Positions 7,866-38,314 of a DNA stretch of 64,000 bases are shown piece by piece. The position numbers and the translations under genes are program-made. The notes under the pieces were generated by a model. The model was not told the origin of the DNA. It was given only the letters and a program-made list of their open reading frames with translations, and searched no databases. The stretch lies in NCBI RefSeq assembly GCF_013315695.1, contig NZ_CP054353.1. One strand, written 5' to 3'. Position 1 is the first letter of the stretch. Each line of letters starts with the position of its first letter. This DNA is from Escherichia coli. Lineage in GTDB: Bacteria > Pseudomonadota > Gammaproteobacteria > Enterobacterales > Enterobacteriaceae.

Positions 7866-8270
7866 ATGGATCAGGTCGTTGTTTTTCAAAAGATGTTTGA
7901 GCAAGTGAGAAAAGAGCAAAACTTCTCCTGGTTTTATTCAGAATTAAAACATCACCGTATTGCACATTACATTTATTATCTAGCTACGGATAACATCAGA
8001 ATTATTACTCACGATGACACGGTTTTGTTATTAAGAGGAACCAGGAACCTGTTAAAAGTTAGTACGACCAAGAACCCTGCTAAAATAAAAGAGGCCGCAT
8101 TGCTTCATATTTGCGGAAAATCTACATTTCGGGAATACTGTTCAACACTGGCAGACGCGGGCGTTTTCCGGTGGGTTACTGATGTTAATCATAACAAACG
8201 CAGTTACTACGCCATTGATAATACGCTTTTATATATTGAAGATGTAGAAAACAATAAACCATTAATCTAG
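7866..8270 (+). CDS. ycgX: YcgX, DUF1398-like protein
   Basis: 134-aa ORF MDQVVVFQKMFEQVRKEQNF... matches recalled YcgX. Confidence 0.8.
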   Translation: MDQVVVFQKMFEQVRKEQNFSWFYSELKHHRIAHYIYYLATDNIRIITHDDTVLLLRGTRNLLKVSTTKNPAKIKEAALLHICGKSTFREYCSTLADAGVFRWVTDVNHNKRSYYAIDNTLLYIEDVENNKPLI

Positions 8271-8481
8271 CTAAAGTTGGATGCTTAAAAAATGCTTCAT
8301 AATTCAGTAAGGCATTAGCATAATGGAAATAAAAGTGCAGAGACTATTCATATGGATGAGTAATACTATCTTTTTATTGCCACCCATAAATAATCACCAG
8401 ATCAATACTATCAACTTGATATTTGAAATGTGATCACTTGACTTTTGATACGTTATTTTATAGCGGTTAACATATTTATAA

Positions 8482-8530
8482 AAAACAATGGGCGTGCCAT
8501 ACGCCCGTTTCAATACTTAACGCACATGTG
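8482..8530. repeat. Hairpin-containing ~50-bp repeat, copy A (GGGCGTGCCATACGCCCG stem-loop followed by TTTCAATACTTAAC), homologous to the icd terminator region
   Basis: About 85% identical to 9343-9395 by eye; possible ycgX terminator. Confidence 0.6.
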
Positions 8531-8974
8531 TTTTGGTTTAGTCATCATCCGGTTATATGTATTTTAGCCAGGAATGGGTTAAACCATTCCTATATAACTA
8601 AAAAATTGAAACCTTATTCTCATGTCATGCTTATATTCGTCATTATCGTTATATAAAAAGGCCAACCATAATGTTTAGCAAATTGGCACAAAGTAGTATA
8701 AAGGCTATGTTTTAATTACAGGATGTTCAGTCATTTGAATGTATAACATTTTAGCTAAACAAATCTAAAACGAAGTGAATAATTTAATGTTTTCACTAAA
8801 TCTCATTTTGTTTAATATCTATTGAGATTTCTTGCTTTAAATTTTGTTTTATATAAACAATGGTTTTAATTTTTAATTAATTTGTTTTTTGAGGGGGTAA
8901 TATACTCATATGCAAAATCAAGAAATAAAAATCCTAATGAACCATATTAAATACCGTGGGATAAGACATAACAA

Positions 8975-9298
8975 ATGAAGTGGATAGTAATTGACACGGT
9001 AATTCAACCTACATGCGGTATATCTTTTTCAGCCATATGGGGTGATATGAAAATGATCATCTGGTATCAATCCACTATATTTCTTCCTCCTGGCAGGATA
9101 TTTACACCGGTTAAGTCTGGTATTATCCTTAAGGATAAAGAATATCCTATTACTATTTATAACATCGCACCATTCAACAAGGATTTATGGAGTTTACTCA
9201 AAAGCAGTCAAGAGTGTCCTCCAGGAGAAAGCAAAATAACAAATAAATGTTTGCATAATAGTTGCATTATAAAAATATGCCCATATGGGCTCAAGTAA
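8975..9298 (+). CDS. iraM: Anti-adaptor protein IraM (RssB inhibitor, stabilises RpoS; PhoP-regulated)
   Basis: 107-aa [26 protein letters not shown]... matches recalled IraM/YcgW. Confidence 0.9.
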
Positions 9299-9342
9299 TG
9301 GGCTTCATATAAATATTCTCGACATGCTATTAATAATATCCA

Positions 9343-9395
9343 CATAAATAAAACAACGGGCGTGTTATACGCCCGTTTCAATATTTAACACATGT
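9343..9395. terminator. Hairpin, repeat copy B; probable bidirectional intrinsic terminator shared by iraM and icd
   Basis: GGGCGTGTTATACGCCCG stem-loop between the iraM stop (9298) and the icd stop (9401), flanked by T/A-rich runs. Confidence 0.6.
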
Positions 9396-9400
9396 AGAGA

Positions 9401-10651
9401 TTACATGTTCTTGATGATTGCATCACCAAACTCTGAACATTTCAGCAGTTTAGCGCCTTCCATCAGACGTTCGAAGTCATAGGTTACGGTCTTGGCATTG
9501 ATTGCGCCTTCCATACCTTTAACAATCAAGTCTGCGGCTTCAGTCCAGCCCATATGGCGTAACATCATCTCAGCGGAGAGAATAATAGAGCCTGGGTTTA
9601 CTTTGTCCTGACCGGCATATTTCGGCGCAGTACCGTGGGTGGCTTCAAACAGGGCGCATTCGTCACCGATGTTTGCGCCAGGGGCGATACCGATACCGCC
9701 AACCTGCGCTGCCAGGGCGTCAGAAATGTAGTCACCGTTCAGGTTCATACAGGCGATAACATCATATTCAGCCGGACGCAGCAGGATCTGTTGCAGGAAT
9801 GCATCAGCAATCACGTCTTTAATGACGATCTCTTTGCCGGTGTTCGGGTTTTTAACTTTCAGCCACGGGCCGCCGTCGATCAGTTCACCGCCAAACTCTT
9901 CACGCGCCAGCTGGTAGCCCCAGTCTTTAAACGCGCCTTCGGTGAACTTCATGATGTTGCCTTTGTGCACCAGGGTCACAGAGTCACGATCGTTAGCAAT
10001 TGCGTATTCGATCGCTGCACGAACCAGACGTTTGGTGCCTTCTTCAGAACACGGCTTAATACCGATACCGCAATGTTCCGGGAAGCGAATTTTCTTCACG
10101 CCCATCTCTTCACGCAGGAATTTAATCACTTTCTCAGCGTCGGCAGAGTCTGCTTTCCATTCGATACCCGCATAAATGTCTTCCGAGTTTTCACGGAAGA
10201 TAACCATATCGGTCAGTTCAGGGTGTTTAACCGGGCTTGGAGTGCCCTGATAGTAACGTACCGGACGCAGGCAGATGTAGAGATCCAGTTCCTGGCGCAG
10301 AGCAACGTTGAGAGAGCGAATACCGCCACCAACCGGAGTGGTCAGCGGGCCTTTGATGGCAACGCGATATTCACGAATCAGATCAAGGGTTTCAGCAGGT
10401 AGCCAGACATCCTGACCATAAACCTGTGTGGATTTTTCACCGGTGTAAATTTCCATCCAGGAGATTTTACGCTCGCCTTTATAGGCTTTCTCGACTGCAG
10501 CGTCGACCACTTTCAGCATGGCTGGGGTTACATCTACACCGATTCCATCACCTTCAATGTAAGGGATAATCGGATTTTCAGGAACGTTGAGTTTGCCGTT
10601 TTGCAGGGTGATCTTCTTGCCTTGTGCCGGAACAACTACTTTACTTTCCAT
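9401..10651 (-). CDS. icd: Isocitrate dehydrogenase (NADP)
   Basis: 416-aa [41 protein letters not shown]...; full length, not interrupted by prophage. Confidence 0.97.
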
Positions 10652-10822
10652 TCACCTCTCCTTCGAGCGCTACTGGTTTGCTCGTCTGCCACCACGTTGC
10701 ATATGCGTTTGCGTCCTGCGATACGGATGCGTTAGAGCAATTTTTTGTTAATGATTTGTAATTGGCTTGTCAATACTACCCTATTGTTTGCCGTCATGAA
10801 AGATGCGCGTTATTAGGCTATA
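10652..10822. promoter_or_regulatory. Divergent icd / original rluE promoter region
   Basis: 171-bp region between the icd start and the K-12-like rluE start codon at 10823. Confidence 0.5.
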
Positions 10823-10897
10823 ATGCGGCAATTCATAATCTCTGAAAATACCATGCAAAAAACTTCTTTTAGACCAAAGACAGTATTTTTCTGACCT
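10823..10897 (+). pseudogene. rluE: Remnant of the original rluE 5' end (17 K-12-like codons MRQFIISENTMQKTSFR, then out-of-context PKTVFF*)
   Basis: Read directly: ATGCGGCAATTCATAATCTCTGAAAATACCATGCAAAAAACTTCTTTTAGA; homology to recalled K-12 RluE N-terminus ends at 10873. Confidence 0.7.
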
Positions 10898-11112
10898 TCA
10901 AATAAGGTATTAAATATCAATAATTTATATCAGATTTTAAGCAATAAAAAAAACCACCAGAGATAACTAACAAGGTGCTATTTGGTCAAAATTTGACATT
11001 ACTCGATTCAGCGACTATCTCACTTTGAGCACTATTGGGAAAATTATCAAAAGTCATAGTTGAAGCGACAAGCAACGAGTAAATTATGGCATCCCCCCTT
11101 TTTGAGGTTCAC

Positions 11113-11199
11113 ATGAAACGCTTTGCACTGATAGCTGTGAAACTCGTTGCCTTTACTGGTTCTGCATCTGCTGCAACCGAAGAAATCAACTTCAAGTAA
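11113..11199 (+). CDS. Small ORF (28 aa) with signal-peptide-like N-terminus, inside the inserted segment
   Basis: MKRFALIAVKLVAFTGSASAATEEINFK*; GAGGT Shine-Dalgarno 5 nt upstream of the ATG. Confidence 0.35.
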   Translation: MKRFALIAVKLVAFTGSASAATEEINFK

Positions 11200-11232
11200 C
11201 AGAAACACTATATAACAATGGAGTGTTGACAA

Positions 11233-11682
11233 ATGGATACTACCGAAGAACGCAATGGAACATATTTCTACAGAGGACACCCGAACCTGTCCAAAATAGA
11301 ACTACTCAACGTCATATTCCTTGAAGAATTCTGTAAGGAATTGGGGATTGATTCGGTATCAGGTGCAGCAATCTTATCTGGTCAACCGTGGCTGGGTACA
11401 AGAGCGAAGCCGCAAGGGGCAACCCTGGGAACAAGTGTTGTCTCAAAGTATGCGCGTATACTGATGAGAGATGCACGCATGCCTTTTGGTATTTCTGTTC
11501 ATACACCAGTGGGTGTAAGGATGCAGAAATCTAATAAGCTTGCTGCAATTATCGCTCGTTGGGTCCCGTGGATTGGTTGGGCTTCACTGTCGATGAGTCT
11601 TTACAGGGTTTCGACTCGTACCCAGGAAAAATACAATCTGATTGCCAAACCTCAAGACCGTATTAAGTGGACTTCCTTCTAA
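11233..11682 (+). CDS. Hypothetical basic protein (149 aa), first gene of an inserted two-gene cassette; candidate toxin or effector
   Basis: Track ORF; GGAGTG upstream; net charge about +9 by residue count; no signal peptide or TM segment; not recognised. Confidence 0.6.
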   Translation: MDTTEERNGTYFYRGHPNLSKIELLNVIFLEEFCKELGIDSVSGAAILSGQPWLGTRAKPQGATLGTSVVSKYARILMRDARMPFGISVHTPVGVRMQKSNKLAAIIARWVPWIGWASLSMSLYRVSTRTQEKYNLIAKPQDRIKWTSF

Positions 11683-12017
11683 TGGCGACAACAATCACAG
11701 ACGAAGTTTTAGCACTGTTCCGTGATGAGATTCCAGGTTATCAGGATGACCACGGGAAGGAAATTCCGTTAGAACTGGACTCTGATTTGTTCGACTATCC
11801 ACGAGATGATTTAGAGGACGCTATACGGAAATACAAAGAGAGGTTTGGGATTAACCTGGATAATCTGGACTGGTCTTTGTACCTTCCATGGGAGTCTGCA
11901 CCATTGCTTCAACGATGGTTCAAGCTCAAGCGGGAAGAGGTAGAAACAACACGTTTACCGTTAACTGTACGGATGTTTGCAGAATCAGCAGAAGCGGGAA
12001 AATGGCTGTATCAGTAG
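11682..12017 (+). CDS. Hypothetical acidic protein (111 aa), second gene of the cassette; candidate immunity protein or antitoxin
   Basis: ATG overlaps the upstream stop (TAATG at 11680-11684); net charge about -10 (24 D/E versus 14 K/R); an in-frame ATG at 11667 is an alternative start. Confidence 0.6.
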   Translation: MATTITDEVLALFRDEIPGYQDDHGKEIPLELDSDLFDYPRDDLEDAIRKYKERFGINLDNLDWSLYLPWESAPLLQRWFKLKREEVETTRLPLTVRMFAESAEAGKWLYQ

Positions 12018-12036
12018 AATAAAAAAGAAGGCTGCG

Positions 12037-12099
12037 ATGCCCCTCTTATTACTGCTGATGATGGTAGTGGTAAAGCATCATCCTAAACTTGAACAGTGA
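12037..12099 (+). CDS. Tiny hydrophobic ORF (20 aa, MPLLLLLMMVVVKHHPKLEQ), speculative
   Basis: ATG preceded by GAAGG at appropriate spacing; located 20 bp after the cassette stop. Confidence 0.2.
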   Translation: MPLLLLLMMVVVKHHPKLEQ

Positions 12100-12349
12100 A
12101 GTGCTGTCACCCATCAGTAATACAGAAACACTATTTTTCATACCAGTATTTATTCAATTCATCAATGTAAAATGTGTTCATTGGGCCATATTTATCACCA
12201 TGCAGCCACACAACCGCTGCTCACTAACCCAGGTATTGATGAAACCGCGCTGAAGAGCCTGAACCCTGAACCTCTAACGAGTACCTTAAAAGTCCAATGC
12301 AATCCGACACTGTGCTACCCTCTGCGTAAAGCTCTATTTGGAATTTACC

Positions 12350-12988
12350 ATGAAATACTTTAGCGATTCTAAATCTTCTTTTAGAAAAAAACAGGTTAGT
12401 CGACTAAACTCGCAACACTCCACTAAGCGTAAACCTGAAAACCAGCCCACGCGTGTGATCCTGTTCAATAAACCCTACGATGTTCTTCCGCAGTTCACCG
12501 ATGAAGCCGGACGCAAAACATTAAAAGAATTCATCCCGGTTCAGGGCGTTTATGCAGCAGGTCGTCTTGACCGCGATAGCGAAGGGTTACTGGTGCTGAC
12601 CAATAACGGCGCGTTGCAGGCGCGTTTAACCCAGCCGGGTAAACGCACCGGAAAAATCTATTATGTGCAGGTGGAAGGTATTCCCACACAAGACGCACTT
12701 GAAGCCTTGCGCAATGGCGTAACCTTAAATGATGGCCCTACCCTGCCCGCAGGCGTAGAGCTGGTTGACGAACCCGCGTGGTTATGGCCGCGGAATCCAC
12801 CAATTCGTGAACGCAAAAGTATTCCCACCAGCTGGCTTAAGATCACCTTATATGAAGGACGTAATCGCCAGGTGCGCCGCATGACCGCCCATGTTGGTTT
12901 CCCCACGCTGCGACTGATTCGCTATGCGATGGGTGATTACTCTTTGGATAATCTTGCCAACGGCGAATGGCGAGAAGCGACAGATTAA
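12350..12988 (+). CDS. rluE: 23S rRNA pseudouridine2457 synthase RluE, mosaic allele with divergent N-terminus
   Basis: Track ORF 12338..12988 (TTG); ATG at 12350 gives [39 protein letters not shown]...; body matches recalled RluE from PENQPTRV onward. Confidence 0.85.
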
Positions 12989-38056: not shown

Positions 38057-38314
38057 TTATTTATAAATTACTGCTGTTCCATGGAGGGTATTCGGACCGG
38101 TTACAGAAGTAATACGGAAAGATTTTGCGCCCATCTCATCCGCTTTTTGCGCCAGCTGCTCTTCCAACGATCCCAGATTTGTCCCCGCGTTAGCACTGAT
38201 AGTACCGACTTTTTGTTGGCCTTCTGGCGTTGACTGAACTTCGACAGCCGCAAAGCTGGCAAATGACATGGAGCTTAAAATCGCCGCAGCGATGAGGGTT
38301 TTTACGTTTTTCAT
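38057..38314 (-). CDS. bhsA: Stress-resistance and biofilm protein BhsA/YcfR (YhcN family)
   Basis: 85-aa ORF MKNVKTLIAAAILSSMSFASFAAVEVQS... with signal peptide. Confidence 0.9.
   Translation of the reverse strand: MKNVKTLIAAAILSSMSFASFAAVEVQSTPEGQQKVGTISANAGTNLGSLEEQLAQKADEMGAKSFRITSVTGPNTLHGTAVIYK

Follow-up and report, generated by a model that had tools for sequence, protein, structure and literature searches.

The window, i.e., the whole 64,000-nt stretch of Escherichia coli DNA analysed here, carries icd (9401..10651, minus strand) followed by rluE, nudJ, mnmA, and hflD on the plus strand from 12350 onward. Alignment to the K-12-type empty site places an insert of about 1.5 kb (10874..12385) inside the 5′ end of rluE and not in the icd–rluE spacer. 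The insert is carried by 374 of 5426 complete E. coli genomes, the remainder having the empty site; in 5051 of the 5425 matching genomes, icd adjoins rluE, and the stretch that starts at 10874 is missing. Besides the start of rluE, PGAP annotates within the insert just two genes, one of the STM2901 family and one encoding a DUF1493 protein. The insert is framed by the following features.

10823..10873, plus strand: orphaned native 5′ end of rluE, its first 17 codons (MRQFIISENTMQKTSFR), matching the K-12-type empty site with 99.5% identity as far as 10873
10863..10873, unstranded: left copy of an 11-bp core, CTTCTTTTAGA, forming an attL-like junction; the same core flanks the intact element described below
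11233..11682, plus strand: STM2901-family gene, 149 aa, the first cassette gene (NCBIfam NF045926, 156 bits against a cutoff of 110; PGAP)
11682..12017, plus strand: DUF1493 gene, 111 aa, the second cassette gene (Pfam PF07377, E = 1e-29; PGAP)
12350..12385, plus strand: replacement 5′ end of rluE, brought by the element, with the right copy of the core, CTTCTTTTAGA, as its last part (PGAP rluE start at 12350)
12386..12427, plus strand: about 42 nt of rluE diverged from the K-12 type, after which identity resumes (alignments to the empty site and the intact element)

The two cassette genes are widespread. A comparison of 49 STM2901-family loci, with one genome per species, showed that the STM2901 and DUF1493 genes are linked in about 30 genera, with 65–80% identity at the nucleotide level. 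Matches to the 360 bp upstream of the pair and to the 330 bp downstream of it are confined to Escherichia. In 25 of the 41 loci from other genera, an hcp gene (Pfam T6SS_HCP, E = 1e-26 to 1e-31) ends about 10 nt before the STM2901 ATG, and because of this recurrent order, hcp-STM2901-DUF1493 is taken as the ancestral module. A remnant of hcp was sought in the insert of the window, and no trace of it was found. Similarity to the hcp–STM2901 junction of other genera starts at about 11216 (AATGGAGTG), i.e., about 16–20 nt before the STM2901 ATG. Since the upstream similarity across genera begins only at this point, the DNA preceding it must differ in origin from the gene pair. Being linked to hcp elsewhere, STM2901 and DUF1493 are probably a type VI secretion effector/immunity pair; literature searches on DUF1493 and STM2901 returned nothing functional.

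It is in the upstream DNA, between the left junction and STM2901, that a small ORF of 28 codons is found on the plus strand. It starts with the ATG at 11113, ends with the TAA at 11197–11199, and encodes MKRFALIAVKLVAFTGSASAATEEINFK. The preliminary description of this DNA had located it in host DNA just upstream of the cassette, but it sits 240 nt within the inserted segment 10874..12385. PGAP puts no annotation on the ORF, and it is called as a gene in some assemblies (P0067–P0070). The ORF and its DNA are absent from 47 other STM2901/DUF1493 loci representing about 30 genera. Its features are listed below.

11104..11107, plus strand: Shine–Dalgarno sequence GAGG, separated from the ATG by 5 nt (TTCAC), as read from the sequence
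11113..11199, plus strand: the 28-codon ORF, very likely the 5′ relic of a gene for a 116-aa exported protein (homology to the protein cluster P0074–P0088)
11113..11172, plus strand: codons for a predicted Sec signal peptide, residues 1–20, with cleavage after A-S-A (filter for n-, h-, and c-regions)

The peptide has the charged N-terminus, hydrophobic core, and ASA motif earlier ascribed to it, namely, K2 and R3 in the n-region, the core FALIAVKLVAF, and the site A18-S19-A20 before A21. According to a rule-based filter, it possesses everything expected of a substrate for Sec signal peptidase I: a positive n-region, an h-region of 10–12 residues, and A-x-A at −3/−1. Residue K10 of the core is replaced by T in most other alleles. 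As to the ribosome-binding site, the distance of 5 nt that had been given for GAGGT is correct for GAGG, while GAGGT lies 4 nt before the ATG.

How exceptional is such a combination? The same simple filter was run on every ATG frame in the 64-kb window that encodes 20 aa or more, 1122 in all; six of them passed, three being long ORFs with typical export signals. When a Shine–Dalgarno sequence was also demanded, two ORFs were left, the 28-codon ORF and an 85-aa ORF at 38314 on the minus strand, which we take to be BhsA. By chance, ORFs with both a signal-peptide-like sequence and a Shine–Dalgarno sequence are expected at a rate of about 0.1 per 64 kb, and at least one appeared in 6 of 60 Markov simulations. 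Thus, the combination is unusual, though not decisive by itself, given that the whole window was scanned.

An alternative in-frame ATG at 11086, upstream of that at 11113, would give a 37-aa version of the product. The run of C residues between the two ATGs varies among strains (C6, C5, or CCACCC) and shifts the 37-aa frame in about one quarter of the carriers. Because of this variation, the 37-aa frame is not a stable reading, and the 28-aa version alone is consistent across strains.

Database searches with the peptide itself gave little. Pfam, NCBIfam, and PADLOC contain no family for the 28-aa peptide, an exhaustive HMMER search of 1.84 billion representatives with the 37-aa frame retrieved its own allele cluster only, and tblastn of the 28-aa peptide against plasmids found one E. 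coli record, which carries the same locus. A profile was then built from the natural alleles of the ORF, read through the stop as in the allele of Escherichia sp. E1V33. Besides the allelic short ORFs, this profile detected one longer protein, P0071. It is encoded on a contig of 555 nt (L057) that begins with the same rluE junction and is about 75–80% identical to 10874..11211 of the window. A word-indexed search with the native part of P0071 returned P0071 alone, although the cluster to which the search for relatives eventually led is present in that collection.

On the 555-nt contig, the frame runs for 23 further native codons and is then interrupted by ISSen4. That its greater length merely reflects read-through into the insertion sequence was considered and rejected, since these native codons precede ISSen4 and the frame is intact on two other contigs, L058 and L060. 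The former, a 12.8-kb contig of Enterobacter wuhouensis, was retrieved with a DNA pattern spanning the stop position (TAY in place of TAA). Here, the same junction, upstream region, Shine–Dalgarno sequence, and ATG open an intact ORF of 116 aa, MKRFSLIALVLLTGTASA followed by ATEGINFKYQKHYSC...SSCIEVE. It is succeeded by an 88-aa ORF, two ORFs of phage families, and a large serine recombinase with Resolvase, Recombinase, and Zn-ribbon domains (PHROG integrase, E = 5e-64). The recombinase gene is divergent from rluE and adjoins its replacement start, lying 40 nt from rluE in the intact elements.

The element is found in E. coli as well. In the E. coli drafts L060–L064, the gene for the 116-aa protein is the first gene of an element of about 13.5 kb located at icd/rluE and flanked by the same core; it carries capsid, S49 protease, and tape-measure-like genes along with a 555-aa serine recombinase. 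The core CTTCTTTTAGA stands on both sides of the intact element (positions 2306 and 15989 of L064), a shorter version, (C)TTTTAGA, flanks the Enterobacter element, and the junction nucleotide is identical in the window, L057, L058, L060, and L064. In the window, the second copy of CTTCTTTTAGA is at the right junction, 12375..12385; thus, the attachment point and the short core repeat typical of an integrative element that uses a large serine recombinase are seen at both junctions. The replacement rluE start of the window has its homologues in MSDARKYYNDSKTSFR and MSNARKYYNDSKTPFR of the intact elements. A literature search found no paper in which integration into rluE is described.

The 116-aa protein belongs to a cluster of 15 members (P0074–P0088) from several Enterobacter species, Serratia, and E. 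coli drafts, exemplified by WP_326471248.1 (Enterobacter wuhouensis) and EFM6520596.1 (E. coli). It consists of an 18-aa signal peptide and a 98-aa mature part with two cysteines, near both ends. Comparison of the intact gene between L058 and L060 revealed 25.5 synonymous and 9.5 non-synonymous differences (pN/pS = 0.11), so the gene is under purifying selection. Two full-length members are labelled in UniRef as “C-type lysozyme inhibitor domain-containing”, a label that Pfam and PDB sequence searches did not reproduce: Pfam gave no family even at E ≤ 10, and phmmer against PDB gave a chance match only (E = 0.6). The AlphaFold model, in which mostly β-strands are predicted, has a pLDDT of 53 and is too poor for fold comparison. 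Searching phages by tblastn with the full-length protein gave no match other than a predicted prophage whose span runs on into host DNA. PADLOC had no match for the STM2901/DUF1493 pair, the 116-aa protein, or an 89-aa protein, and the assignment of any of them to a defence system was dropped.

With the intact gene at hand, the following parts of the insert can be assigned.

10874..11211, plus strand: left-end segment of what appears to be a decayed phage-like element, with the upstream region, Shine–Dalgarno sequence, start, and first 33 codons of its first gene (homology)
10993..10998, plus strand: TTGACA, candidate −35 sequence of the relic gene promoter (conserved block, consensus match only)
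11197..11199, plus strand: derived nonsense codon TAA at codon 29 (TAC in Escherichia sp. E1V33, TAT for Tyr in the intact genes)
11212..11217, unstranded: novel joint between the relic and the ribosome-binding region of STM2901 (homology to the intact element ends at 11211)
12224..12310, minus strand: putative, weakly assigned decayed 5′ remnant of a serine recombinase gene (short resemblance to the recombinase N-terminus)

The left-end segment is about 75–80% identical to L057, L058, and L060/L064, and it is missing from the STM2901 loci of all other genera. Its identity to L058 rises from 73% in non-coding DNA to 81.5% in the signal-peptide codons and 92.5% in the first 13 mature codons, and the 9 nt from the Shine–Dalgarno sequence to the ATG are the same (9/9) in the window and in the intact E. 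coli and Enterobacter versions. At the protein level, the 28 residues of the ORF align to the N-terminus of P0074 with 81% identity, and P0081 has an identical ATEEINFK; the shared N-terminus comprises the signal peptide and ATE(G/E)INFKYQKHY. The signal peptide of the window is homologous to MKRFSLIALVLLTG(T/S)A(S/F)A of the intact proteins, relative to which it has an insertion of two residues (V-K/T). The position agrees too, the relic being the first gene inside the element, beside the orphaned rluE 5′ end and the core CTTCTT(T/A)TAGA. Beyond 11211, there is no similarity between the window and the intact element, and a full-length mature domain of about 98 aa with a cysteine near both ends is absent from the window. 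The match to the intact gene ends at this breakpoint in all 374 complete-genome carriers, which thus share one truncation point. By homology, the ORF of the window is best regarded as a pseudogene fragment of the 116-aa family and not as its functional member.

These alignments bear directly on two other origins of the ORF. One is that it arose as a chance open frame in AT-rich non-coding DNA, without any coding ancestry. It is indeed short and lacks PGAP annotation, the region around it is AT-rich, and the expected 0.1 such frames per window is not negligible over many windows. However, the ORF is homologous, in both its nucleotide and its protein sequence, to the beginning of a gene that is under purifying selection and lies at the same junction, and its codons are better conserved (81–92%) than the flanking non-coding DNA (73%). 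The idea is thereby refuted and deserves next to no credence. The other origin is a host gene for an exported protein, cut by the insertion of the cassette. The ORF does look like a 5′ stump adjoining acquired DNA, but the empty site of 5051 of 5425 genomes has no such gene, and its alignment refutes the proposal, whose probability is practically nil: the stump belongs to the mobile element itself. One proposal of the preliminary description was that the insertion had displaced a gene for an exported protein, of which the ORF would be the truncated 5′ remnant. The remnant part is borne out by the alignment to the first 28 residues of the 116-aa protein, and the longer exported protein that it presupposed does exist in Enterobacter, Serratia, and E. 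coli drafts; the displacement part is wrong, as the ORF came with the inserted DNA, the insertion cut a host gene for a cytoplasmic protein, RluE, and the truncation arose within the element.

The present stop codon of the ORF is younger than the truncation. TAA at codon 29 is confined to E. coli. The four codons after it (QKHY) remain homologous to the intact gene, and Escherichia sp. E1V33 has the same junction with codon 29 still TAC; because of this, the nonsense mutation postdates the truncation. The aligned relic alleles differ by the substitutions K10T, V12I, and E24G, i.e., three non-synonymous and no synonymous ones, plus the stop change. This pattern differs from that of the intact gene (Fisher p = 0.03, or 0.01 with the stop change counted). 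Two relic alleles are frameshifted, that of E1V33, with a 5-nt indel after codon 14, and P0072. Each was seen only once, one in a draft genome and the other in a contig assembled from reads, and may reflect a sequencing error.

In all sampled complete E. coli carriers, a frame of 26–30 codons is open, with indels of +6 and −6 nt, and another assembly has a relic allele with +3 nt. The conservation of the reading frame at occupied loci, earlier put forward as a touchstone, therefore holds for the sampled complete E. coli carriers and fails in E1V33 and in one metagenome-derived allele. An open frame with in-frame indels could hint at selection for translation. As evidence for selection, however, it is weak, because the indels lie in a triplet/hexamer repeat of the TCT/GCA type, where in-frame slippage is expected.

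A functional small peptide had also been proposed, and two forms of it can be imagined: a 28-aa pre-peptide releasing periplasmic ATEEINFK, or an uncleaved form inserted in the membrane. A canonical signal peptide behind a strong Shine–Dalgarno sequence, rare enough by chance (about 0.1 per 64 kb), retention in 374 genomes, and the predictions of gene callers in some assemblies (P0067–P0070) would all suit it. Yet the signal features are fully accounted for by descent from the 116-aa exported protein, and the mature part amounts to just eight residues closed by a recent nonsense mutation (TAY in relatives). Coding constraint is not apparent either: all three substitutions are non-synonymous, the C-terminal half is replaced in the frameshifted alleles, no homologue beyond its own alleles occurs among 1.84 billion representatives, and there is no family for it in Pfam, NCBIfam, or PADLOC. 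A function of the peptide as such is, hence, very improbable, and a signalling role for the cleaved signal peptide or the octapeptide is still more speculative. Instead, the product of the relic would be a predicted signal peptide followed by the octapeptide ATEEINFK, and it would itself serve no function.

Expression of the relic is another matter. The candidate −35 sequence TTGACA lies in a conserved block together with the palindrome GTCAAAATTTGAC (10985..10997). By consensus match only, the aligned site in the intact element is a promoter-like TTGACA-17-AATCAT (10/12), and the −10 sequence of the window, TATCTC, is weaker. A promoter-like site of the orphaned rluE (10796..10824), likewise recognized by consensus match only, points into the relic and the cassette. 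Since the Shine–Dalgarno sequence and the ATG are intact, TTGACA is conserved, and the orphaned rluE promoter points inward, the relic is probably still transcribed and probably, or at least possibly, translated.

Might the translated relic serve the genes behind it? A leader peptide regulating the cassette was among the earlier proposals, and in the form of an attenuator or riboswitch-type leader it was rejected: the RNA 11080..11260 folds no better than its shuffles (−30.9 kcal/mol, the shuffles averaging −33.8; z = +0.75), the plus strand has no terminator-like site, and Rfam has no match at E ≤ 1. Joint conservation of a leader ORF with the regulated genes across taxa was not observed either. 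In another variant, co-option has turned the relic into a translated upstream ORF, so that its translation, and not its peptide, promotes expression of the hcp-less STM2901-DUF1493 pair by translational coupling, by opening a weak AACACT/AGTGTT hairpin over the STM2901 Shine–Dalgarno sequence, or by mRNA protection. Several observations are consistent with this: the Shine–Dalgarno sequence and the ATG are perfectly kept, none of the sampled complete E. coli carriers has a closed frame, their indels being in-frame only, the orphaned rluE promoter-like site reads into the relic, and the ORF ends close to STM2901, its stop now standing 33 nt ahead of the STM2901 ATG. Prior to the nonsense mutation, a state represented by E1V33, the frame would have ended at the TGA 11227–11229, only 3 nt ahead of this ATG. 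But by creating TAA, the mutation shifted the stop away from the STM2901 start (from 3 to 33 nt), which is the opposite of what coupling would require, and STM2901 has its own Shine–Dalgarno sequence, GGAG. The RNA folding and Rfam results also speak against it, as do the broken frames of E1V33 and P0072; the exclusively non-synonymous substitutions do so too, although a pure upstream ORF need not conserve its peptide. On balance, co-option is unlikely, if somewhat less so than a functional peptide. Were it true, a captured type VI effector/immunity-like pair would owe its expression module to what was left of the beginning of a prophage gene.

The right end of the insert is consistent with the same origin as the left one. 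The non-coding region 12018..12349 has no relative outside Escherichia apart from a short recombinase-like stretch within 12224..12310. Of 16 residues in its translation, 9 match MCVAIGYMRYSSKLQGAGST, with which the recombinases of L058 and L064 begin their catalytic domain at the N-terminus, and its orientation and 40-nt spacing from the rluE ATG are as in these two elements. The similarity has an E value of 5e-4 against the 361-nt segment but of 0.74 against the whole window, which is statistically weak, and whereas L058 and L064 have the full domains, the window retains only this weakly matching 16-residue N-terminal resemblance; the stretch is a probable, though weakly supported, decayed 5′ remnant of the recombinase gene. 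The icd–rluE “cassette” is probably a mosaic in which two decayed element ends surround the STM2901/DUF1493 pair. K-12-type sequence resumes immediately after the intact E. coli element but not after the relic of the window, and the approximately 42 nt of diverged rluE after the right core suggest that E. coli acquired the relic from a diverged donor through homologous recombination.

Taken together, the comparisons make it very probable that the 28-codon ORF is a functionless fossil, the truncated 5′ relic of an element-borne gene for an exported protein. On this reading, the course of events was as follows. A phage-like element integrates in the 5′ end of rluE by means of its large serine recombinase, bringing a replacement rluE start and having the gene for the 116-aa exported protein as the first gene at its left end. 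In the lineage leading to the window, the interior of such an element was lost, and the STM2901/DUF1493 pair was joined, about 20 nt upstream of the STM2901 start, to codon 33 of the exported-protein gene. Later on, the Tyr codon 29 (TAY) mutated to TAA, producing the present ORF of 28 codons. The comparisons directly show the homology, the common insertion point, the breakpoint, the derived stop, and purifying selection that acts on the intact gene and not on the relic. The relic DNA would now serve at most as a 5′ leader of the STM2901-DUF1493 transcript.

The ORF itself is, therefore, an ordinary gene fossil, and any annotation given to it should be that of a pseudogene fragment. It also gives a word of caution for small-ORF discovery, since a Shine–Dalgarno sequence, an ATG, and a textbook signal peptide can outlast the death of a gene in its stump. 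More interesting than the ORF are the context of the element and the effector/immunity-like pair devoid of hcp. That the 5′ end of rluE is an attachment site of a phage-like element which has a serine recombinase and rebuilds the start of the gene is of moderate interest to specialists.

The closest known relatives of the relic are the proteins of the 116-aa family (P0074–P0088), with which it shares the Shine–Dalgarno sequence, the start, the signal peptide, the first eight mature residues, and the chromosomal position; reading through the TAA extends the homology of the DNA to 13 mature codons. The difference is that the window keeps only 28 of the 116 codons (33 with read-through), the mature domain with its two cysteines being gone. 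The 116-aa protein, in turn, resembles MliC/PliC (PF09864) in its small size, export signal, two cysteines, predicted β-strands, and UniRef label, but it has no Pfam or PDB sequence match to support the resemblance, and the relic in the window lacks the mature domain altogether.

As for the cargo, the STM2901 and DUF1493 genes are orthologous to those of the orphan modules of Enterobacterales in which hcp, a small protein gene, and DUF1493 stand together, putative Hcp-linked effector/immunity pairs of type VI secretion, as suggested by their gene neighbourhood. In contrast to these modules, the E. coli copy has no hcp, in place of which there are the unrelated relic and its upstream region.

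Finally, the locus can be compared with remnants of the e14/icd type. In E. coli K-12, icdC is a leftover icd fragment beside the e14 element. In both cases, the target is a housekeeping gene, the element supplies a replacement end, and an orphaned fragment of the gene is left; after decay, end fragments and cargo genes remain. Unlike e14, however, the element described here targets the 5′ end of its gene, rluE, so that it supplies a new start codon and presumably a promoter; moreover, it uses a large serine recombinase instead of a tyrosine integrase, and the cargo found at the locus today is an Hcp-type effector/immunity-like pair.

A phage-like element that encodes a large serine recombinase uses the 5′ end of rluE (10823..10873 and 12350..12427 in the window) as its attachment site, a role for which our literature search found no paper. 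Insertion of the element orphans the first 17 native rluE codons, and the element itself provides the new start codon and N-terminus. Two of the intact copies are:

L064, 2306..15999: intact element in an E. coli draft (size in E. coli drafts about 13.5 kb)
L058, about 7958..12650: intact element in Enterobacter wuhouensis (about 4.7 kb)

The insert in the window holds these non-coding and vestigial features:

10985..10997: perfect palindrome GTCAAAATTTGAC, overlapping a TTGACA hexamer
12018..12223: AT-rich non-coding DNA of about 200 bp, separating the DUF1493 gene from the recombinase-like stretch
12224..12310, minus strand: short stretch similar to the N-terminal catalytic part of the serine recombinase encoded by the element

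In the element of Enterobacter and in the intact one of E. coli, the palindrome is kept with its central base alone differing, within non-coding DNA that is otherwise 73% identical. A possible role is that of operator or promoter element for the 116-aa exported-protein gene, of which the 28-codon ORF at 11113..11199 is the truncated 5′ end.

At the right end, the minus-strand stretch shares 9 of 16 residues with the recombinase N-terminus, reads RYSL in place of the active-site RYSS, and lies 40 nt from the rluE ATG, a spacing equal to that in intact elements. This is probably what decay has left of a recombinase gene, though the match is statistically weak. The adjacent AT-rich DNA has no detectable relatives outside Escherichia and no match in Rfam; the promoter now driving rluE presumably lies within it.

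Immediately 3′ of the right copy of the 11-bp core repeat, about 42 nt of rluE (12386..12427) are diverged from the K-12 type, whereas the remainder of the gene beyond 12427 is near-identical to it, and the intact E. coli element does not have this patch. Such a pattern suggests that the relic was imported via homologous recombination from a diverged donor.

The same locus has entered a phage collection as ON470584.1, titled “Escherichia phage vB_EcoM-689R6, partial genome”, which contains host chromosome (icd, the insert, rluE, nudJ, mnmA, and hflD). This record appears to be a prophage prediction overrunning the element boundary, and the “alpha-amylase” and “hypothetical protein” that it annotates in the host/insert stretch are likely artefacts.

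The STM2901-family and DUF1493 genes (11233..12017) gave zero matches in PADLOC, and nothing on their function was found in the literature search. In other Enterobacterales, hcp stands directly 5′ of the pair in 25 of 41 loci; orphan Hcp/effector/immunity modules of type VI secretion are laid out in this way. From the E. coli copy, hcp has been lost. The cassette itself is decaying in some E. coli carriers (NZ_CP027437.1, NZ_CP019029.1, and NZ_CP123059.1): in strain 2012C-4221 the STM2901 gene carries a frameshift annotation, and in two further strains the locus is broken up by IS1 or IS3-family elements.

The other flank of icd holds a separate gene group:

7866..9400: ycgX (DUF1398), ymgL, ymgK, and iraM, on the 3′ side of icd

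The 3 kb inspected past icd in an E. coli record identical to the window showed no e14-type prophage; E. coli K-12, by contrast, carries such a prophage beside icd.
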